The notes under the pieces are model-generated. The model was not told the DNA's origin, did not search any database, and saw only the letters and a program-made list of their open reading frames with translations. From the NCBI GenBank assembly GCA_015680685.1, contig MNCI01001684.1, positions 214,409-278,408 of the forward strand: a DNA stretch of 64,000 bases, in the 5' to 3' direction. The position numbers and the translations under genes were made by a program. Origin of the DNA: Gnetum montanum. Lineage: Eukaryota > Plantae > Gnetophyta. Shown here in pieces: positions 1 through 13,700 of the stretch (position 1 is the first letter of the stretch; the number at the start of each line of letters is the position of its first letter).

Positions 1-1039
1 AAATAGACACAGTATGGATTACTGTTTCACTTTGAAACAGGATATTCAGCGGATGATCGATGAAGGCCAAATCACTTTTGACGAGGCCAACCCGGTCCAA
101 CCACAGAATCAAGCTATGGGGGTGTACAAAGACCCCCTGAACACCAAAGAGGCGCCATATGTCATTAATATAATCTACCTTGATGATGGGGGGGAAGCAT
201 CCAACATGAACACTGTCTATCCCCAATATAAACAGGAAACACCTAATAGGCCGTTCGTAGTTCAGATTCCCCCCGCTGTGTCCATGCCCACGCCTAACAC
301 CATGACACAGGACAAACCGTATGTAGTGCATGTCCCTCCCGTCATCCCCTCAGATGCATCAACCCCTCATACTCGGCCTACCCCTTTCATAGTCCGGGTA
401 CCACCCGCGGTCGCAACAGCAAGGGTCCAACCTTTACCAAAACCAACTCCGTATGTCGTTAGAATACCCGAAACTCCTAATGATTACCAAACCTCCATCT
501 CACGAGCGCCAAGCCAACCCAGTCCCTACGTCATTAGGGTCCCTGGCTAGCCTTCTAACTAGTCACATCCAACGGCACAACCGCAACCCCGCCCAGCTCC
601 ATATGTGGTGCGAATCCCAGGGCAGCTTGAGGCTCCAAGACCAGCCCCACCTCCATGCCACACACAAGAATTCCTAGCAGATAGGCTTACACATGAAGGT
701 GTGGAAAAGGAACGCCAACGGTTAGCTCTGGGGCCACCTAAGCCCATTCCACTTAACTCTGTGCCCATGTCGTCGTCTAACAACCAATCAGACGCAAGTA
801 ATGAAGGCAAATCATCTGAAAATTATGAACTGCTTAAAACAATAGCTTCGAACAAAAATGACAAATCAACAAAGCATGAAATAAAACTGTTGGGCCCAAT
901 GGACCCAGTCATCATTGATAAAAACACTCCAAACAGTAAAGATTTAGCAATGGCTTTGACACAAGTCACCCAAGCATTGAAGCAAAAGAACGCTTCGTTG
1001 AGCTTGTATGATTTGGTGCTAACATCCCAAACACATTGA
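1..1039 (+). pseudogene. gag: gag C-terminal region / Pro-rich gag-protease linker (in-frame stops)
   Basis: 'HSMDYCFTLKQDIQRMIDEG' (end of Tat gag Cys/His motif); 'ASLSLYDLVLTSQTH' resembles the Ogre pre-protease motif; repeated P[YF][VI][VI]x[IV]P. Confidence 0.75.
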
Positions 1040-1054
1040 GAAGCTCTAGTATGC

Positions 1055-1963
1055 ATGTTAACGTCGATCCGGGTAAGCGAGGACTTGCCCCCGAATGAAC
1101 TGAAAATCCATGCAGTAATGTACTTGTCTCACGAGACCACTCATAAACCCTTGAGCTTCCATGATGACAACATTAAGGTGGACAAGAAAACAGGGGAAAT
1201 AACAGTAGTCCCCATGTTCATAACGATATGTATCAACCAGTTCAAGATACATAGGGTCCACGTAGGCGATGGAGCCACAACAAATGTTGTACCATATCCC
1301 ATCGTTGAACAATTGGGGCTTACTGAATTAATTAAACCAACTGCGACTACATGTTTAAAGTCGTTCAGCGGGTCACGCGTAATGGTAAAAGGCACAATAA
1401 CTTTAGATTTCATAGCGGGAGACCAGTTCCCTACATCTGCCGAATTCCTAGTAGTCGATGAGATGCCAGGGTTCAACCTAATATTAGGAAGACCCTGGTT
1501 GGCCCAACTGAGAGCTGTCTCCTCCCTTGTACACCAGGAGATCCACCTGTCATATGAAGGCGGTGAAATCATTATACACAGGGAAGCCACTACGCCTATT
1601 ATCTCATCACACGTGGACATGGACCAAGGATCAGAAGTCAAACTTGAGGAGCCTAAACAAAACGATAAAAATGCGCACCCATTGGTAAGCAATAAACCTT
1701 CAAACATGGAACAAGAGCCTCCCAAAACAGAAACATCCACGTTTGACGTTGTGCATACAACCTCTCAAATGGAAAATAACATAGAACCTGCACCAACTAT
1801 CGAAACATCTGAAGACATTGACACAGAAACCGTTCCATCAGACGTCCCTTGGGCTGAATTACCATTCAATGTGATCAGCGAAGGGGACGCTGAATACAGA
1901 ATCCTCCCGGTTGACATATCGCCTAACATTAAAAAGAAGAAAATCAAAAAACTATTACAATAA
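1055..1963 (+). pseudogene. Retrotransposon aspartic protease ORF
   Basis: RVHVGDGATTNVV (degenerate D-x-G region), FLVVDEMPGFNLILGRPWL; ORF stops at 1961-1963 with no RT directly following. Confidence 0.9.
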
Positions 1964-1977
1964 TATCAACACTCTTA

Positions 1978-2283
1978 GTCCGAAATGACGTCAAACTATA
2001 ACACGTCCGAAATGACATTAAACTACAATACGTCTGAAATGACACTAAACTACAATTCGTCCGAAATGACACTAAACTACGATAAATCGAAAAAAAAACA
2101 ACAAAAAAAAACATTATTATTACTAAACTACACTCCCTGTCTGAAATGACGTTAAACTATCACGTCCGCAAAGACGTAAAACTAGCCACGATCAACAATG
2201 ATTGGTCAACAGAAAAAAAATCCACCCGTGTCATTCGAAATATTCCTCGTTTACAACTGGGGCCCGAAATGGCCTTAAACTAG
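1978..2283 (+). repeat. Tandem array 1 of hairpin+AAACT motif (27-nt period; coremin/xrRNA-like)
   Basis: Units at 1978, 2005, 2032, 2059, 2139, 2164, ~2260; consensus GTCCGAAATGACRYTAAACTA. Confidence 0.9.
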
Positions 2284-5200
2284 TTCATGCATGCATACTT
2301 GGTTCTCCTTTTTGTTCAGCATTTACAATCACATCTTTGCTTTACACTTAAAACAAAACAGAAAAACAAGCCAAAACATTTTTCATTGCTGCGTCGTGTT
2401 TACAATTAAAGTCAAAATCAACAAAAAATTTTCTTACATGCAATGTTGTACAATTACAAGTGTCAACTGTTTTCGTCCATCTCAAAATTTTCAAGTTACA
2501 ATTCCCGTATAAGTCCGAGTCAAAAAACAACAAAAAACTAAAAAACTAAAAAAAAGCCTAAGAATCTGGGACGGGAGGATCATCCCCTCTAGATCCACTG
2601 GCATTAGGGGCCCCTACTCCACTGGGGCCAGCTTCTTGAGCATCATCACCACCTTCATCCTTAAAACACCAAAAAGAACAACCAACATAAGAATAAGTGA
2701 ATGTCAAAGTTTTAAATACCATTCAGTAAATTTTATAAGGACAAAACACTTATCATAGGAGGATTTCCTCTTCTGAAAACGCTGGCCCAGTCTGTCCCAT
2801 CTAGGCCTAAGTCAACATCTGCCAAAGTCTTTCCTTTGTCGATAGCTGACCAGGTAGGGCGTTTCAGAGGGAACTCACCCACCGACACTTCCCCAAAAGC
2901 AGTTGTGATCACCCTTGTAGGCGACTCCATTTCCACAGTTGTATTCTGAGAAAAAGTATCGAAGGCAGAACGCAAACCCAAACCCTCCACAAACATCTCC
3001 AGTTGCCTCTTTTCAATAGACACCTCTTTTAGTGACTTCTTGTAGTAATGTTTGTGATTTTTCTCATTCTGACCCCACTTACGAACCTTGGAAGCAAAGA
3101 CCTTTCAATCTTGACATTTAAGGTTCAGGAGATCAATTTGGGCTTTGCGCTCTACCATTCTCCAGGTTAACAATGCATGACGATTCAGCAGATTCCAATA
3201 TCTAGTGTATGTGACCTCGGACGTTCGCCAAGAGCGATCGCCACTTAGTCTGGCAGCGGTGAACTCATACCGGGCCTTCAGATCATCACGTTCCACTGAC
3301 AATTCAGAGACTTCCCTTTCTTTTTCTTGAATTTGTAGCCACAACTGCTCAATGGAACGCCTACAGGTCCACAACGATTTAGCATTGTGCACAAAGCCTT
3401 CTGCAACTCCATCATAAACAGGCCTTGGCACCTGTTCCACTTCTGGGGAAAGTGCAGTTAAGCTTTCTATGCTAACGCTTTTAGAGGGGTCCCATCTCAA
3501 TTTAGTGCCTATTCACGTGAAAAATACAAATGTTAGGACAATACAAGCAAGATGTGAAACTCCAAACCTTTAAATAATATATACCTATGTTAGGGTGGGC
3601 CTCCTGAATCCGTTCGACGACTTCTTCCGCAAGTCCAGCCACAAAATCCATTTTTCTTGGCATTTCAGACCAAGTAAATGGCTCACGGGTATGGGATGAA
3701 CTAACCTCAGCGGTCCTCTCCGAGGGAACCGTCTTCATCGGTACATCCAAACGCACCTTCCTGGTCTCGCTGCCTTCATCTGGACAAGATAAAAACACAA
3801 AAAAATAATAAATAAAAAATACCACAAAAATGATGACTGAAAAGCGAAATTGAAATGAGATAAAGAGAAAAACATACCATGATCCTTGTCACCCTTTGGG
3901 GGGTCGCCCAGATCCAAGTCTCCTTGAAGAAACCTACGGAACACTTGATCGACACTGCCCTGGTCATCCAACGGCTCAGTTTCTATGGTTTTCTCCTTTA
4001 ACTCCTCCGTCTCTCCGCCCTGGCTCTTCTCTGTATGTTCCTCCTCGTTGTTCTTCTCCATATTGGTCTCCTCCTCCTCGGCGATAGTCTCTAGAGCCTA
4101 CTTCCTCACTGTTTTAAAATCAAGCCAAAAACACCAATAACACGTAAGCGATTGAAGTAAAAGTTATAGATAAAATGAAAACGACAAAGTAATAAATAGG
4201 TGAGGTCTGCTTACCAGGCATCTTGAAGCATATCCGCTTCACGCGTGGCTGGTTCACACCGGAGATTTCCTCAGCCGTGCATTCAGGCCTCTTTAGCTTT
4301 GACTTAGCTTGGCCAACGGTCTCCTTGATGACCCGTTCTTCCCTTTTAGCAGTGTAGGGTACCTCGTCTAGCTCCAACCCCAAACTATCACGTGTGTGGA
4401 TTGAACCGCCAGATGATCCCCCTGTAGTAATAGAAGCGGATTCATCAATACCTTCAAGTGCATCTTGGGACATAGCTGTCTCAAACAAGTGATTGATCCA
4501 TGGGCGGGATATTTGACCCCGATCCCGCAGAAAAAACTTGTTGTCTACGCGAACTACTAGGAACTCGGCAAAACGACGAAGATAACCGGCGAAGAATGCG
4601 AAGGTGAAATGGGATTGCGCCTCGACATTCGAACGCAACCGCACTATCTCCTTGTGAATGCCCAACAACAAAAATCGCACCCAGTTATATCGCATGCATG
4701 TTTTCAAAATAGTTCGCATGACACGAACAACCTCAACCCCAAGACACCTCACCTGGGAAAGAGTTTTAGGGAATACCCGTGCTCTGAATAGGGGATATAG
4801 TTTGTTCACTTCCACAACTTTTTCCTTCCCCTGCATCAGGAATCCCTTGGCACCCTTGGCCACGCCTAGCAAATCTTCCAACTCCCAAATCATCTGGAGC
4901 TCTTTATGAGCTCTGTCTAATACTACATTTAAGCCATCTGCCAGTACGCCAAATAGGTTTGAAAAGAACTCGGACAACAGATGGAAAACTACCTTCACAC
5001 CCTTAATCCGGGTGCTGTAGTATGAGACAGACTCATTAAAAGAGTCTACAATCACAATCATCTCCCCAATGGAAACGTCAAGACTCGAGGTCATAAAAAG
5101 CTCCATGAGGCCGACATTATCTAGGCAATGAGCGAGGGATAGAGGCACATGATTACATACCCACTTCTGAGCCTTAGTCACCCCTCCGACCTTCATCAAC

Positions 5201-5683
5201 AAAGTCATCTCGGTTCGTCCAGTTGTCACCGGATCCTCACCAGAAGGTACATCAACTATAAAAGCAATTTAAAATGGTCGTATCAGCATAAGTCAAAACA
5301 ATTGGACAAACCCGTTAACATATCTAGAAAATGTTATCATTTATCGTGGGTGGCGGATCTAGATGTGCTACCAAGATCACAAGGGAAAACTGGCCCGTTG
5401 TCAGTCCAGTCTTCATGAAGCCACCCACGAGCCTTACACATAGCAAATGCTCTGGAGAACTGCTTATGAAAATGGACCATCGAACCCTTCGTTTGATCCA
5501 GTACGGTCCCACGAAGGGTGGGGCCCGTCATGAATGCTTCCAGAGCAGTGTGAGCAAAGGCTAAGCCTTCATCTTTAATGAGTGTCCCATCTGGGTTGGT
5601 CTTTGGCCTGTAAGCAAATATGGGTCAAAACAAGAAGCAAACGCTAAACAACGAAAGGAAATAGTAAACTTAAATATTCCTAC

Positions 5684-6133
5684 CTGGCCACTCGATACAC
5701 CGTGCCAGGAGGGTTCTGGAATAATGTATGTGCACGGGCAGCTACAAACAATGTATTGTTGAGGTAGTCTAACCCTCGCGGCAATAGTACCCACACGTGC
5801 GTTAATGGGCGTGTAGACCAGGGCCCACGAGTAGTACCATCCTCATTAACAAGAGGCCCCTCATCAATATCCTGTATGAAAACCATGATACCTTTTGCAG
5901 CCCCTGGCAGCATCTCCTCAAGGACGCTCCGTGCAGTCACCTCGTCAAAGTTTGACCAGATAGCCACCTCGAAATTGTCCAACAAGAAGGATAGAAATCC
6001 ACATGTGCCTTCCCTGAACCAAACCCCATTGTTATCCACGGTCAGATCCGGGGGAACCTCGCCATCCTCAACAAGGCTAACCCATGTTAATACCCTGACA
6101 AGTTCGACAACAATGAGGAAGCGCTTGCTGTCC
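5684..6133 (-). other. FCP1-homology/NIF (HAD, CTD-phosphatase-like) domain exon, catalytic DxDx(T/V) motif lost
   Basis: KRFLIVVELVRVL...VWFREGTCGFLSFLLDNFEVAIWS...NNTLFVAARAHTLFQNPPGTV resembles plant NIF proteins (KLLVLDLNGLL...VFKRP...FL.FC...FEVGIWSS...NTLLLDDSPYKAL.NPP.TAI). Confidence 0.72.
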
Positions 6134-6237
6134 CTGCAAACAATCATGATGCCACGATAGGTTAGCCCAAAAAGTGAAAGTTTACATCATAAATCGACAC
6201 TTAAAATCTAGAAAAATCTTACTAACTGTTTGCATTC

Positions 6238-6770
6238 AGCGTATACGCCCCGTAGACCAGCGTATACGTCGGTGAAGCTATTCACACAGCGTAAAAATGT
6301 GGTTTAAACTCAGCGTATACGCTGTACATTGAGCGTATACGTTTCCTAACTCAGCGTATACACCAAAAATGAACTATCTTACGCTTAGCATATACGCTGA
6401 CGAAACCCTCAGCGTATACACCATAGCTCGATCTAAGCGTAAGCAGTCTACGCCAGCATGGAATAAACAAGTTTACGCTGAAAGAAAACTGCAAACTAAT
6501 AGCGTATACGCCGAATAAACCCTCAGTGTATATGCTGTCATAGTAAACAGAATTTACACTAATAAAATAAGCAAATCATGCTGACAAGACTTTGCGCACA
6601 AAAAACTCATGATGCTGTGGCTTACGCTGATAAGCTAGTACAGGGAAAATGTTTACGCTGACAAAACTTTACGCTATAAAGTGACACTCGGCGTATACGC
6701 CGCAAAACCCCATACGCCTAAAAACCCCTACGCTCGGCGTATATGCCGAGACTGTCTACGCTATAACCAA
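6238..6770. repeat. Cluster of ~11 (CA)GCGTATACGC(TG) palindromes in intron 1 of the antisense gene
   Basis: e.g. perfect CAGCGTATACGCTG at ~6311; variants at ~6239, 6260, 6332, 6352, 6410, 6501, 6690, 6735; TACGCT half-sites continue to ~7180. Confidence 0.85.
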
Positions 6771-7222
6771 AAAAGCATAGAAATAATTAGAGGTAGAGAT
6801 CAGAGCTTACCTGTGGGATGTCACAGGCCAGGATGGGATCCTTGGCCTGGCCAGGCCCTGCAGCATAGCTTCCATCTCCTCCGTGAAGGTCAAGTCAGGA
6901 CCTTTCCTCCCCTGGCCCTCCACTTCTTTGCCCTTGCCCATCTCGGCCTGTTTATGTTGACGATACAAGCTTACGATGAAGAGAAGAAGTGTCTATGCTG
7001 ACACCTGAAAGTTAACGCTCCGTGTCTATGCTGGGGTTTAACGCTCTGCGTCTACGCTAGGGTTTAATGTTGCGCGTCTACGCTGGGGTTATTCTTTGGC
7101 GTCTTCACTCACGAGAAAATTTATGCTTACGCTAAGGCACTGTATTTTATGCTTATGCTTTAACAGTTTACGCTGCCGCTTATGATCTGTTGCTTTCAAA
7201 GTAAGAAGCAAATGGACCCCCC

Positions 7223-7233
7223 CCTTTATATAG
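7223..7233 (-). promoter_or_regulatory. Putative TATA box of the antisense gene
   Basis: CTATATAAAGG on the minus strand ~290 nt upstream of ATG 6941. Confidence 0.6.
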
Positions 7234-7432
7234 CGCTCCGTTGACGCTGCCATTTAATCCGCCGTCGCTCCTTTTTGCCATTTTTTTCCTTTTTCCTTAT
7301 TTTTCACCCGAAAAAAATATAAAAAAATAAAAATAATAAAAAATATTAAAAATAGAGATTGCTACGTCTTGGTTCCCCAATGGACCCCATTTTACACGTT
7401 TACTCTGAACGTTCTAGCTTAAACTCCAAGTT

Positions 7433-7620
7433 GCGGCCTGGTAAGGCCTTAAACTGCCACTTACGGCCCGGTACGGCCGTAAACTGCCACTTTCCCAATC
7501 CAAGTTATAGCCCGGTAAGGCCTTAAACTGCCACTCAACGCCCGTTAAGGCGTTAAACTGCCACTCCATGCCCGGTAATGTGTTAAACTACCATGCGTCC
7601 CGGTGTGACGATAATCCACC
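7433..7620 (+). repeat. Tandem array 2 of hairpin/pseudoknot+TAAACTGCC motif
   Basis: Six units, e.g. GGCC-TGGTAA-GGCC-TTAAACTGCC, ACGGCC-CGGTAC-GGCCGT-AAACTGCC, ACGCC-CGTTAA-GGCGT-TAAACTGCC. Confidence 0.88.
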
Positions 7621-7704
7621 ATTATGCATGTACACATAGTTTAAAATCGTCAAAAGACACAGAACGATACCCCTTTGCTTATTCAGATCTCTTTTTATTG
7701 GCAG

Positions 7705-10700
7705 GAACAAGCTCAATGGACTGCCAGCATTTAACCGCACCATTAATCATTGACGAACCATATGGAAAAATTACAAGAGACATTAACATAAATCTCATCA
7801 ATTTGAATTCACCAACGGACAACGTAGTCATAGCCTTAACATAGAAAATAACAGATGATTACAAGGGCATGAAAAAATTCCTTGACATAGAGGTCGAGAA
7901 TATCATTGAAGACCCGTTGTCTGAAACTCCCATCATCATGCCCAATGGAGAAACTAAAATTTTAAAATTAAGCACCTTATTACAACCGCCATTAGCCAAA
8001 GCATTGAGAACGTGCTTAGGGAAAATATGAAGGCATTCGCTTGGTCCTACACAGACATGCCCGAGCTAGACCCCCAAATTATCCAACACAATATTATCCT
8101 TGACCCAAAGTTGAGACCAATAAAACAAAAAGTGAGAAAGGTTAAGCCCGAGGTAGCATTAGCAGTTTGCAATGAGATCACCAAGCTTTATCAAGCTGGT
8201 TTCATTCAGGCTGTTGATTACGCTGAGTGGGTATCTAACATGGTCATTGTTCCGAAGAAGAACGGAAGCATTCATTTGTGTATTGACTTCCAGGATCTAA
8301 ATGTTGCAACAGTAAAGGACGACTTTCCTCTACCTAGCATCGATCAACTTGTTGACTCAACTGCTAGACACGTGCTATTATCCTTTATGGACGGCTTCTC
8401 AGGATACAATCAAATACGAATCAACCTGGAGCATCAGCTTCGGACGACCTTTATGACACCATGGGGAACCTTTTGTTGCACAATGATGCCTTTTGGTCTC
8501 AAGAACGCTGGGGCCACGTATCAAAGAGTGATGACATTTATCTTTAGCGATTACATACTACACTGAATTAATGATTACGTGGATGGCATTGTGGTTAAGT
8601 TAAAAATGGAGGAACAACATGTACAAGATCTTGATTTAGTATTAAAATGTTGTCTAAAGTATGAACTGAGGCTTAACCCAAAAAAGTGTGTCTTCGTCGT
8701 CAAAACAGGCAAAATGCTTGGATTTATAGCATCAGAAGTAGGGATACGAGTAGACCCCAATAAGGTTAAGGCCATAACAAACCTGAAACCACCAGGCAAC
8801 CTTACTGAACTTCGAGGTCTACAAGGTAGATTACAATTCATCAGGCACTTCATAGAAAAACTGACAGATAAACTAAAACCCATGAACCACCTGTTACGCA
8901 AGAACGTACATTTTGAATGGACTCCGCAGTGTCAACAGGCATTCGATGACATTAAAACGGCACTTGCTCGGCTACCCATGATTTATCCACCCCAAAACGA
9001 TAAACCATTCTACATCTACCTTGCTACTTCAGATTCGTCCATCGCATCTATGCTTTGCCAGAAATGAGATGACGGAACCGAAGTCCCTGTATATTACTTG
9101 AGCCACGCATTAGTTGCCCACGAGAAAAAGTACAATGACGTGGAGAAGTCATGTTTAGCTCTGGTCTTTTCTTTAAGAAAATGACGACATTACCTCTTCC
9201 GCAACCAGGTTTACATAATTTGCAAGGACAATGTACTGAGAGCTATAACAGGGAATATTTATGAAACAAGTCGAATAGCCCGGTGGAAAGCCATGATAGC
9301 CGAGTTTGACCTGTACTACGTAGTGCAATCATTAGTCAAGGGTCAAGCCATAGCAAACCAAATGGCCACATCACCAACACGCTACCAAGCGACTATAGAC
9401 CCAGAATTCCCAGATGAGAATATAAGCACCATAGAAATACTGCCCGATGACTACGATGTTATTTTAAACTTTGATGGGGCATCTGCCTCTCAGGAAGGAA
9501 GTGCAACCGTTGTCATCACCTATCCCTCTGGGGAGATCCGACCCTTTGCCTATCATTTCAACTTTCACTGTACCAACAACATAGCAGAGTATGAAGGTCT
9601 CCTTAGAGGTCTCGCGGTAGCTTTGGCTTTAAACATCACATGGCTTGTAGTCAGAGGGGACTCGCAACTGCTTGTAAACCAAGTCACGGATGTCTATACA
9701 TGCAAAGCCCAACATTTTCAACCATACTGCGACTTGGCAAAACACCTAATGAGACGATTCAAAAATATTGATGTGCAACACGTCTCCAGAAATGATAACA
9801 CCATCATAGATGCGTTAGCCACATTAGCACTAAACATATCTCCAAACATGTTCCACATGTTGCCAAGCTCCATAACCAGTTGTGCTGAACCAATCACCGA
9901 CACCCTTGACACGTTGCCGATTGCATCTGTTAGTTCAACACACGCAATAGAATGGTACGATGACATAAAAGAATACCTTCTACGTGGCAAAACACCACAA
10001 CATCTAACAAGTGCACAGAGAGACGCAGTGCGGAAACGTTCTAAGCAGTATACCCTGGTAGGGGACACACTGTGTCGTCAATCCTACGAAGGCATATTGC
10101 TAACATGTGTTAGTAGTACCGATGCCCAAACTATTGTTGAACAGGTACATGAAGGACTATGTGGAGGACACATAGCGCCAAAAGCCATGGCAATGAAAAT
10201 CGGGTGCTTGGGCTATTATTGGCCACACATGGAATACGACTGTCTAACCAAAGTCAAAACATGTAATACTTGTCAAAAACATAGCAATCTAATACATGTC
10301 CCACCGAATGAGTTGCATACAATGCAAATCACATGGCCCTTTCAAAAGTGGGGGTTGGACCTCATTGGTCAGATAACCCCCTCATCTTCCGTAGGCCATA
10401 GTTTCATTATAACCGCCACAGAATACTTCACGAAGTGGGTAGAAGCTGCTCTCCTTTGAAAAACTACATCCAAGCACATGTGCAATTTCATTCTAGAAAA
10501 CATTGTAACCTGCTTTGGCATTCCCATGATAATCATCACAGACAACGGGCCACAATTTAGCAGTGCCGAAACCAAAGCCTTTTGTGAAAATTTAGGGATC
10601 AAACACTCGTTTTCATCCCCTTACTATCCTCAGAGAAATGGACAAGCAGAAGCAACAAATAAGATAATTATTACAATACTTAAGAAAATGCTTACCCAGA

Positions 10701-11190
10701 GCAAAAGAAAATGGCACGAACAATTGGTGTACGCATTGTGGGCATACCGCACTACGCACCGAACTTCAACAGGTAAGACACCATACAGCCTTGTTTACGG
10801 TTCAGAAGCTGTTTTACCTTTGGAACTGCAGGTACCATCTTTAAGGATCACACTTTCTGGGCTCCTCGACGACAGGCAAAAAAATGATCTACGCGTTGTT
10901 GATCTTGACTCGGTGGAGGAAGAATGTGTGCGCGCCCTCGATCAGATCGAATGGTACCAAAAACGACAACGACAACGACATCGACATAACATCAACAAGC
11001 GCCCTATCAAAGAGGGTGACCTTGTGCTTAAAGCTGTTTGGGAACATCCGGACAAATTCTCAGCTAACTGGAAGGGCCTTACTTGGTTACTAAAGCACTC
11101 GACAATGGAGCATTCAAACTAGCTGACATGGAAGGAAACAAGCTTACCAATCCAACCAATCACTTGTACCTAAAACCGTTTTACGTTTGA
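7705..11190 (+). pseudogene. pol: pol: reverse transcriptase, RNase H, additional RNase H, integrase (few stops/frameshifts)
   Basis: RT: AFAWSYTDMP, LCIDFQDLN, FMDGFSGYNQI, MPFGLKNAGATYQR, YVDG (mutated YVDD); aRH: FDGAS, NNIAEYEGL, GDSQL; INT: HEGLCGGH...CNTC, GLDLIG, TDNG, NGQAEATNK; GPY/F-like tail ending at TGA 11188-11190. Confidence 0.96.
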
Positions 11191-11213
11191 AGTACGAGCT
11201 CAGGTACGTGCAA

Positions 11214-11581
11214 GTCCTGGAATCATGACTATAAACTGATACCACAGCTCTTCCTGGGATCATGACGGTAAACTAATACCACAGCTCAGTCCTTGGTTAT
11301 GACTTAAAACTGACGCCACACCTGTCCTGGCATCATGACAATAAACTGATACCCCACAGTGTCCGCAATGATAATAAACTAGCACCTTTCCGCCATGATA
11401 GTACACTGCCACCGTCACAACCACCAAAGTCTGCTAAGACTATAAACTAGCTTGCCTCCTCATAGTCTGCTAAGACTAAAAATTGGCAATGTAATGTCCA
11501 CCACGACACTAAATAGGAAATGTCCAATGGGTTACGACATAAAAGTAACCCATGGTAGTCCGCCAAGACTATAAACTAGCA
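11214..11581 (+). repeat. Tandem array 3 of hairpin/pseudoknot+TAAACT motif just after the integrase stop
   Basis: About 10 units such as GTC-CTGGAATCAT-GAC-TATAAACTGATACCA, AGTC-TGCTAA-GACT-ATAAACTAGC, ATGTC-CAATGGGTTAC-GACAT-AAAA-GTAACCCAT. Confidence 0.88.
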
Positions 11582-12573
11582 AGTTCATCACTGGTTCATC
11601 AATCTGCCACCACATTTACGCTTCATCACTGCATCACCCGTCATCAGGAGATCCTACCAACGCTGCTACTATTGACACACAATCTGCCACCATGTAAGTC
11701 TAAGCTTGATCATTCACTCATGGTTTTCTTGTCTTCTTGGAGTTATGTTTGCAGGATGACACCCAAAGGTTTTCGCACAAGAATGTATTTCGTCACAAGC
11801 AGCAAGATGGGACAATGTTCACAGCACACATGGCGAGATTAAATCAAACCATTCACTAGTACATCCCCATTCACCGACTCATTCCCCATCTAGTCACAAA
11901 CCCATTTTACTCAATCATACCTCTGATACATCTAGTACACCAAAACCTTAAACACACTATCACATACCGTCGCACATGAGTACAAAATCAATGCAAAGTT
12001 TACGCTAAACAAAAAAAAAGGAGTGAGACTCCTGGCACTTCTCATATAAGCCCCGGGCGGGAAGGCAGTTGTCTCAAAACCAAGTACTCATGTCCAAAAC
12101 GGTCAAGAAGAATATAGTTGCATGGCTCTGGCTCTCCGCCAACAGGTCCCCCTGCACATTAAACATGGGCCTTGTTCCTCCAAAGCATGTAACACATCTC
12201 CCCGTGGCTTTGGTCTTGCCAACAGGTCCTCTGGAATACTAACCAAGAGCCTCGTTCTGCCAAAGAACGTCCATCGCATGTCTGAATTCTGAGTCTGCTA
12301 AACAATGGCTATTGACAAGGACCAGCATGCCGCACACCCAAGCACCCCATCTCCCAGCATAATTTCTTGGGGAGTTGCCAATTCCCATAATCTCTCTTCT
12401 CCTATCAGCCAAAAATTTCCCTTTTTCGATCCCATGTACTACTGAACACGGTGTGACAACGTCTAGTCAAGTGGCAAAGAATGAAGTCTATATCAAGTTT
12501 CTTGTGGTGTTTTGCACTTCTTTGTCAATGCCTCTTGGGTCAATTCCTCCAAGCGTCAACAAAGAGGGGCCAA

Positions 12574-13700
12574 TGAAACACCACAAAATTTTGAGCTTGG
12601 TACTTCCCCAGCAAGAAGTAGGTCCCTGGGACCCATGAACAACCACAGCTACATTTGGTGTCATACATTGCAACTTTGGGCATTAGGAGGCTTAATTTTC
12701 ACTACCAGCGTATATGCCCAGCATCAACAGCGTATACGCCCGACATCCCCAGCGTAGACATCTGACTTATACACCCGATGTACACGCCTCACCTATACGC
12801 TCGGTACCACAGATGCATACGCCCGACGATGAAGTCTCAATGACAGAATGAAGACAACACTAAAGAGCAAGAATTGAATCAAGTCGGTAGCCGTCAGCGT
12901 ATACGCCTGGTGTATACACCCAGCCATTGTCGGCGTGTACGCCTAGCATCCATAGCATCTCCACCCAAGTTTACACACGCCCAGCACGTCCAGCGTATAC
13001 GCCCAGCGTGTACGCTGGCCTGATGTAGCGTATACACCCAGCAGATGTAATATGTTGTATATTTGTAAATTGTATGCACCTGGTCAACGTGCCACATGTC
13101 TCCTAACCCGAGTCTAGCGTAACAATCGATATAAAAACCCCACTTTTCCACTTCAAGGGGAGGTTGGCAAAGATCCCAGAGCATACCCAGGAGCAATTAT
13201 GCTACGCACCAGAGCCAAAACCCTCTTACGCTGGAAAACCTGTACACCATGCTCATAGTCTCTACGCCGCGCCTACAGCGTATACCAGCCCAGCCGTCCC
13301 TGCATTCACCGGGGCTTTTCGTCTGCCTTGTGTTCATCACAACTGCGTTAGACCGGTGCACTGTACTTTGACTCTGTAATACCATTGTTTACAGTTTACG
13401 CTAATTTCTTGCATGTTTTCTGTTTACGCTCGTTTACATTTATGCCCTGGTCATATCTGTTACGTCGTTTACGCTCTCGTTTATGCCCGTTTACGCTTTT
13501 TATGCATAACCCAGCGTATAGCACTTCGGCATACGTGCGGGTAAATCCTTGTCTGATCCGTGTGCGGACCACCCAAGGTACTCTACCTTCGTGCATTCTA
13601 GCTCACCCTCAGGCAAAGGCAAGGTCTTCTGTGCGCGTCCTACGACCCCACGGTCTCTATTTCCTTCCAGCCGGTGACCGACGATTTCAGGTGGTACACA
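12574..13700 (+). repeat. 3' LTR of the Tat element (~1.13 kb)
   Basis: Follows PPT; TG...CA ends; GCGTATACGC palindromes upstream of TATA-like GATATAAAAA at ~13128. Confidence 0.75.

Follow-up and report, generated by a model that had tools for sequence, protein, structure and literature searches.

Introduction

What would small predicted pseudoknots of a viral type be doing, in tandem, within a plant retrotransposon? The question is raised by a 64,000-nt stretch of DNA from Gnetum montanum (contig MNCI01001684.1, positions 214,409 to 278,408; hereafter the window), positions 1-13700 of which are, judged by domain content, the 3′ part of a decayed Ty3/gypsy retrotransposon of the Tat type with the Ogre/Retand domain order. 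An original prediction had placed three sense-strand arrays of one shared architecture at the boundaries of its open reading frames (ORFs) and compared them with coremin, an exoribonuclease-resistant RNA (xrRNA) of viruses. A scan of the window and a tabulation of the units bear out both the places and the architecture, and all the stem and loop-tail pairings that had been quoted are present in the sequence. We give an even chance to the reading that these coremin-like units would fold as small H-type pseudoknots, stall plant 5′-3′ exoribonucleases and leave uncapped 3′ fragments.

Results

Three arrays of one architecture

Twenty-four units were counted (7 + 6 + 11), all on the sense strand and leaving aside a few decayed unit remnants:

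1978..2283, + strand: array 1, seven units of the coremin type, each having a 6-nt loop (core stems at 1978, 2005, 2032, 2059, 2139, 2164 and 2262)
7433..7620, + strand: array 2, six units with a YGGTAN-type loop and complementary tail, 30-nt period (core stems at 7436, 7466, 7510, 7540, 7570 and 7597)
11214..11581, + strand: array 3, eleven units whose loops, 6-11 nt long, form helices of up to 8-9 pairs with their tails

They stand next to the following coding sequences:

1..1963, + strand: 3′ part of the gag-protease region, interrupted by stops (ORFs; Tat-type polyprotein match)
1040-1963, + strand: protease frame, ending in a stop (ORF list)
7716..11190, + strand: pol, with reverse transcriptase (RT), RNase H, an additional (archaeal-type) RNase H and integrase, and with stops and frameshifts inside (Pfam)

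Array 1, whose first four units follow a 27-nt period, begins 14 nt past the stop of the protease frame, array 2 ends ~95 nt upstream of the first ATG of pol, and array 3 begins 23 nt past the integrase stop. These sense-strand positions, behind two stops and ahead of pol, correspond to the untranslated region (UTR) or intergenic location of coremin. A unit consists of a 3-bp core stem that is often extended, a loop beginning with a pyrimidine, three bases, AAA and a C. The pyrimidine is present in all 24 units, the C-G closing pair in 23, the AAA in 22 and the C that follows it in 21, and in 23 of them the base that follows the conserved C pairs with the second-last base of the loop.

A descriptor of the unit gave 18 matches within the arrays, 2 scattered elsewhere in the 64-kb window and none on the minus strand, compared with a mean of 1.6 per 64 kb (maximum 6, none of the coremin type) in 40 local dinucleotide shuffles; like the covariance model built from the 18 hexaloop units it was derived from the units themselves, and such figures show clustering rather than an unbiased discovery rate. 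The covariance model found nothing convincing in the window outside the arrays. No Rfam family matches the arrays, a single chance microRNA match falling in the long terminal repeat (LTR).

Array 1 and the published coremin rules

Coremin (xrRNA-C) requires a short stem with C-G as its closing pair, a loop of the form YGAD or YGNNAD, the spacer A16-A20 and a second hairpin (PMC6546385, PMC10520033). All seven units of array 1 possess the YGNNAD loop, the AACUA sequence, the C-G closing pair and a perfect 3-bp core. [quoted passage not shown] A loop 2 nt larger than that of classical coremin had originally been taken for a departure from the motif but is a published and tested variant (PMC10520033), and through these loop rules and the viral copies described below the likeness of array 1 to coremin turns out to be better supported than had been claimed. 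Considering all arrays, the loop rule fits 16 of the 18 hexaloop units, the six longer loops lying outside the tested rule, and the AACUA core occurs in 12 of the 24 units.

The units can thus be set beside the xrRNA-C of BNYVV RNA3 and the cucumoviruses and the hexaloop variants of umbra-, enamo-, hypo- and chrysoviruses (PMC6546385, PMC10520033), with which they have in common the C-G-closed first stem of 3-5 bp, the YGNNAD loop, the AAACUA spacer, a position behind stop codons or between genes, and the occurrence of tandem copies. They differ in belonging to a chromosomal LTR retrotransposon, in their number of 24 spread over three arrays, in that most are not directly followed by a second hairpin and in that position 21 is often not a C. 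The tandem xrRNAs of flaviviruses also stack nuclease blocks behind a stop codon; theirs, however, is a much larger three-way-junction fold, and this comparison is one of architecture alone.

Watson-Crick loop-tail pairing in arrays 2 and 3

In arrays 2 and 3, 61 of 68 loop-tail cells (positions 19-22 in 17 units) can pair, compared with a permuted mean of 48.9; none of 100,000 permutations reached 61 and slid registers gave 7-20. When distinct types only are counted, 49 of 56 cells pair (39.7 permuted). Among the 18 hexaloop units from all arrays 80.6% of the cells pair, a value attained in 0 of 500 shuffles and well separated from slid controls (15-40%), and the covariation score lies above all 500 shuffles. 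The independent changes behind these figures are few, comprising two stem types and about six tail types, and departures of the G-U and A-C kind (8 to 2) are too rare to weigh. These permutation and register controls, together with the family retention and the viral copies reported below, support the suggestion that arrays 2 and 3 form H-type pseudoknots. The pairing ATGGGTTAC:GTAACCCAT quoted for one array-3 unit is present, although its ninth pair looks private to this copy; a nested-only prediction gives a plain hairpin as the best fold of this unit.

The loop-tail pairing uses the register modelled for coremin, where the last loop base stands opposite position 18 (PMC10321173). Ordinary frameshift pseudoknots do not stall Xrn1, and the Watson-Crick form of coremin (xrRNA-WCC), known from screen hits and Sanxia picorna-like virus 5, needs a G at loop positions 1 and 4 and a G-C pair between the last loop base and position 18 (PMC10321173). 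Arrays 2 and 3 resemble this form in the Watson-Crick pairing of loop and spacer tail, the loop running antiparallel to the bases after AAA in the same register. Whereas the published form has a 4-nt loop with G first and the required G-C pair at the last loop base, loops here are 6-11 nt long and begin with a pyrimidine, 4-8 pairs are formed and the conserved C is unpaired or non-canonically paired.

Both unit types in viral contigs

The search for viral counterparts that had been recommended was productive: both unit types recur behind stop codons in viral contigs. For the hexaloop pattern, 44 of the 86 matches listed, chance matches included, lie within 60 nt after a stop on the same strand (80 loci with full flanks), the antisense control giving 7 of 86. 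Matches to the array-2 pattern are present in 21 viral contigs, those to a control with a non-pairing tail in one, and 10 of the 22 array-2-type matches lie within 60 nt behind a same-strand stop (antisense control 3 of 22). Some of the contigs with array-2-type units encode an RNA-dependent RNA polymerase (RdRP) and one a phage capsid. Viral tandem units stand 26-40 nt apart between RdRP and capsid genes, ahead of a cripavirus internal ribosome entry site (IRES) or a barley yellow dwarf virus-like translation element (BTE).

L012:632-920, L018:2974-3272, L208:1337, L042, L069 and L220: RNA-virus contigs in which coremin-like units lie between the genes for RdRP and capsid, ahead of a cripavirus IRES or a BTE, or behind the RdRP gene

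To judge from their sequences the viral contigs provide independent support for both unit types. The long-loop array-3 pattern matched 0 viral contigs, and close relatives of the element were found at 0 loci among them. In a 227-kb viral contig (L057:2193-3320) there are several Watson-Crick units with long loops that share the register of array 3. The fold, being 21-30 nt long, may have been captured from RNA viruses or invented repeatedly. A role of array 2 at the DNA level, as factor binding sites, was set aside since the same units occur in RNA-virus contigs.

Array 3 in other copies of the family

The read evidence covers array 3 and stems from two DNA runs (X1 and X13, with different organism labels) and two RNA runs. 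This is a very abundant family: a single DNA run placed 30,401 contigs on 1.8 kb. Median contig depth in X1, taken by hand as in the other run, is ~39,000 over array 3, 61,000 over the integrase and 4,000-8,000 just behind the array; the corresponding values in X13 are 13,500, 14,800 and 200-1,400. In the 120 bases behind array 3 the depth thus drops roughly tenfold or more in both DNA runs. Array 3 is kept across family copies about as well as the integrase, and its flank is not. Joints in the read contigs reveal that the number of array-3 units varies between copies. Among the 40 of 667 difference rows listed, 16 differences fall within array 3, 3 between units and 13 in units; 8 of these 13 fit the motif better in the other copies, 2 form a possible compensatory pair and 1 is neutral. 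This points to decay of the present copy once it had inserted, and to selection acting on the motif during the active period of the family. The two RNA runs, which bear the same species label, provided 352 and 983 placed reads. Most of these derive from diverged copies, and their depth profile parallels that of the DNA runs; they reveal no site where many molecules begin, but such libraries are not designed to show 5′ ends and the result counts neither for nor against stalling.

These data bear on the possibility that the arrays are neutral tandem repeats, perhaps seeded by captured viral scrap, whose resemblance to xrRNAs is without function. Hypervariable tandem repeats are indeed common in Tat 3′ UTRs (PMC7004042) and in Tat/Ogre non-coding regions, unit number varies between copies, the motif measures 21-30 nt only and most Tat loci are without it. 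Against this, three arrays of distinct sequence keep one architecture, one strand and their boundary positions, loops and tails stay complementary despite differing in length and sequence, and array 3 is retained where its flank is not. We regard neutrality as very improbable.

Distant Tat elements

In 81 distant Tat-type loci (0.98 Mb, both strands) the descriptor gave 29 scattered matches, 0 of the coremin type and 0 clustered behind the integrase stop. The search of Tat elements with the covariance model that had been advised likewise yielded no match in these loci (best E 1.3). Three exact motif strings were also absent from the Lathyrus Ogre repeat supplements, in what was a narrow search. 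Of 79 loci used (two were left out, their match ending before the integrase C-terminus), reduced to 24 distinct ones, 12 have a different conserved and covarying structure at a distance of 10-40 nt past the integrase stop.

L129:2053-2165, and the corresponding position in L142, L147, L150, L154, L162, L169, L174, L190, L192, L194 and L203: distant Tat structure behind the integrase stop

The predicted fold is one long stem in which the internal loops are invariant and the top varies; of its 18 predicted pairs, 6 change on both sides. It represents a candidate cis-element, and the three loci that were scanned gave no Rfam match.

A different covarying structure at the same post-integrase place hints at a position-bound function that several folds can meet. 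The units might be selected RNA signals that serve a different purpose: they could bind a protein, act in packaging, dimerisation or export, shield the RNA from nonsense-mediated decay or make the reverse transcriptase pause, to name some examples. The evidence for selection on structure would suit such signals while remaining silent on the partner, and the fold is also found in phage contigs. However, array 1 fits the experimental rules for Xrn1 stalling base by base, which another function would not obviously demand. We consider a signal of this sort quite unlikely to be the main explanation.

Array 2 and the route to pol

7670..7718, + strand: pyrimidine tract, acceptor-like AGs ending at 7686 and 7704, then the pol ATG at 7716 (read by eye)

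These AGs, which a splice-site pattern scan did not flag, are candidate splice acceptors, and a donor-like site is recognizable from its sequence pattern at 1685. The use of array 2 to generate a pol-only mRNA, as first envisaged, is doubtful: such an RNA would be uncapped and begin with a block to scanning, and splicing of the Ogre kind would be the simpler route to pol because of the acceptor-like AGs between array 2 and its ATG. The blocking of XRN3-mediated termination had also been proposed; it would fit poorly for the arrays 14-23 nt behind stops, which lie upstream of any likely cleavage site, and is possible for array 2.

The position of array 2 directly ahead of the acceptor-like AGs and the pol ATG is where an action of the knots mainly on ribosomes would be most attractive. 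Before pol they would block scanning on unspliced RNA so that Pol needs the spliced message, and behind the two stops they would prevent post-termination scanning or read-through. In Ogre, gag-PR is joined to pol through splicing (PMC4408406). With a CGAAAU loop, coremin equalled or surpassed the wild type in stalling scanning ribosomes, also in wheat germ extract (PMC10520033), and the effect of the Watson-Crick variant on ribosomes, frameshifting, needs no second hairpin (PMC10321173), which fits the hairpin-poor units here. On the other hand, no reinitiation block is needed where kilobases of non-coding RNA come after a stop codon, no long ORF lies behind array 3, and splicing of the element is itself deduced from candidate sites. 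An action chiefly on ribosomes is in our opinion unlikely, yet is the foremost of the alternatives; it is compatible with exonuclease stalling.

The host element and other features of the window

The remaining features of the element are:

2550..7240, - strand: probable spliced extra gene in antisense orientation, approximate in its boundaries, with a TATA-like box near 7225 (ORFs of 120-382 aa, donor- and acceptor-like sites)
11700..11760, + strand: short block common to very many copies, with a pyrimidine tract and an acceptor-like AG ending at 11754 (depth peak, sequence)
12007-12023, + strand: polypurine tract (sequence)
12024 to ~13700, + strand: probable 3′ LTR, end approximate (sequence; the 5′ LTR lies beyond the window and the ends are therefore unpaired)

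The gag-protease region matches the Tat-type polyprotein P0126 (23% identity over 180 aa, E 5e-15) and has no Pfam match. Pfam matches in pol comprise RVT_1, RT_RNaseH_2, RVT_3, Integrase_H2C2 and rve, in the order RT, RNase H, RVT_3, integrase; its frame has the first ATG at 7716, ~5.7 kb past the end of the protease frame, and its stop at 11188-11190. In the Ogre/Retand layout of the Tat clade an extra RNase H lies between RNase H and integrase and the protease is on gag (PMC6317226, PMC4408406). We assign the element to this layout because its additional RNase H occupies that position and its protease-like frame goes with gag (end at 1963), apart from pol near 7716. The two are further alike in their long non-coding regions, in tandem repeats behind the integrase (PMC7004042) and in an extra antisense ORF. 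Here, however, the probable antisense gene sits between protease and RT, and the repeats are structured coremin-like units, none of which are found in the 81 distant loci. Named protein relatives are from land plants, with a top RT identity of 59% among the matches listed; the element therefore belongs to a divergent branch.

The antisense gene is probably multi-exon, with its own TATA-like box, and would be transcribed against the sense RNA of the element between arrays 1 and 2. Its ORFs gave no significant Pfam or Atlas match, and in the Pfam scan the ORF pieces showed no match to the plant mobile domain. A short repeat of the GCGTATACGC type occurs 6 times in the antisense gene region (6239-6691) and 6 times in the LTR (12730-13028), possibly as shared regulatory sites. 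A 26-nt tandem repeat in 3 copies (7012-7090) near the start of the antisense gene has no relation to the arrays. The block at 11700-11760 forms a depth peak in all four runs, DNA and RNA, with many loose ends; given these ends and the very high depth it should be shared by other families. Acceptor-like stretches behind the integrase were also seen by eye in the distant loci L125, L139, L164 and L174. Further along the window (20180-58658) long direct repeats occur in several pairs, their members being 73-93% alike and separated by 4-8 kb, and these are probably the LTR pairs of other old elements; descriptor and covariance-model scans detected no motif array in these elements.

Discussion

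We have summarized the data in a model in which each unit would fold with a stem 1 of 3-6 bp, a one-pyrimidine loop and the AAA strand running along stem 1. The conserved C would face the last loop base, and stem 2 would be non-canonical in array 1 and contain 4-8 Watson-Crick pairs in arrays 2 and 3. After decapping or internal cleavage, XRN4 would run in the 3′ direction and halt at the first folded unit, with later units as a back-up and the stem of the next unit possibly replacing the second hairpin. The outcome would be three nested uncapped 3′ fragments, each starting at an array; without the primer site, and with scanning ribosomes blocked at their start, these would be non-coding. Of the uses first proposed for the arrays, such protected 3′ fragments remain plausible; resistance to XRN4 decay could not save the full-length replicative RNA, whose 5′ end, carrying the primer site, would be the first part to go, given the internal position of the arrays. 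The weakest step is the last one, where the fragments would lower XRN activity or weaken RDR6-linked silencing, on the analogy of BNYVV ncRNA3, which is made by Xrn and has been assigned a silencing-suppressor role (PMC5869530, PMC5086608). That yeast Ty RNAs meet Xrn1 during packaging (PMC12786077) gives a retrotransposon reason to manage the decay pathway, and BARE packages uncapped RNA (PMC3735527).

A number of observations weigh against exonuclease stalling. Most units do not have the second hairpin of coremin, a hairpin of negative energy lying 0-2 nt past the knot in 9 of 24 units (2 of 7 in array 1) while the background is 42% of 300 positions. The coremin of BNYVV cannot do without this hairpin, and stalling is nearly abolished when two extra bases precede it (PMC6546385); in the 27-nt repeats the stem of the next unit starts ~6 nt after position 21, beyond that tolerance. 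Tandem units may follow another second-hairpin rule, because the arrays in RNA-virus contigs show the same 26-28 nt spacing. A C at position 21, the alteration of which lowered resistance more than three-fold in BNYVV (PMC6546385), is found in just 3 of the 7 array-1 units, and in place of the G residues of xrRNA-WCC the first loop base is a pyrimidine in every unit and the last loop base is a G in 0 of 24. Units within an array are moreover related paralogues, such that pair counts overstate independent events, and the two measures least affected by relatedness, changes on both sides and pair types, are not above shuffles (488 and 358 of 500). Two of the 13 listed in-unit differences among family copies break an optional outer pair, and all these differences come without linkage, from contigs that may land on the wrong similar unit and whose depth does not equal copy number. 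The motif is absent from the 81 distant Tat-type loci, which are 35-43% identical from the additional RNase H to the integrase; the arrays are therefore a feature of the lineage, not a Tat hallmark, and are not needed for the life cycle of the clade. The fold also occurs in a phage contig (L212) and may serve other ends, because phage copies have no XRN to stop. Finally, uncapped fragments could feed silencing instead of dampening it.

In the literature searched, to which subscription papers did not belong, we found no report of a coremin or other xrRNA in a transposon and, as had been supposed from the outset, no earlier description for LTR retrotransposons; xrRNAs are so far described from viruses only. 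The published coremin search was limited to RNA viruses (PMC10520033), and the tandem repeats known from Tat 3′ UTRs are not given a function in the accessible part of the paper that describes them (PMC7004042). By sequence the present units are closely coremin-like, though the second hairpin, a defining feature, is mostly missing, and Xrn stalling is a prediction. The broader proposal, to which we give somewhat less than an even chance, is that a lineage of plant LTR retrotransposons punctuates its transcript by virus-type xrRNA pseudoknots, which would yield stable subgenomic RNAs directed against decay or silencing by the host, or a cap-independent pol RNA; xrRNAs would then be on record for the first time from a transposon and from the nuclear genome of a eukaryote, and their Watson-Crick variants would reveal the coremin fold.

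Each unit being shorter than 40 nt, the claim is cheap to test. Regardless of function, the 24 units and their viral twins constitute a natural covariation series in which stem 2 ranges from non-canonical to 8 pairs around a conserved unpaired C, and the structure of coremin was called unsolved in papers of 2023 (PMC10520033, PMC10321173). Should the proposal be true, a high-copy nuclear retrotransposon would have gained a handle, at the RNA level, on the decay and silencing pathways of its host, and some of the tandem repeats long noted in the non-coding regions of Tat/Ogre elements would be given a function.

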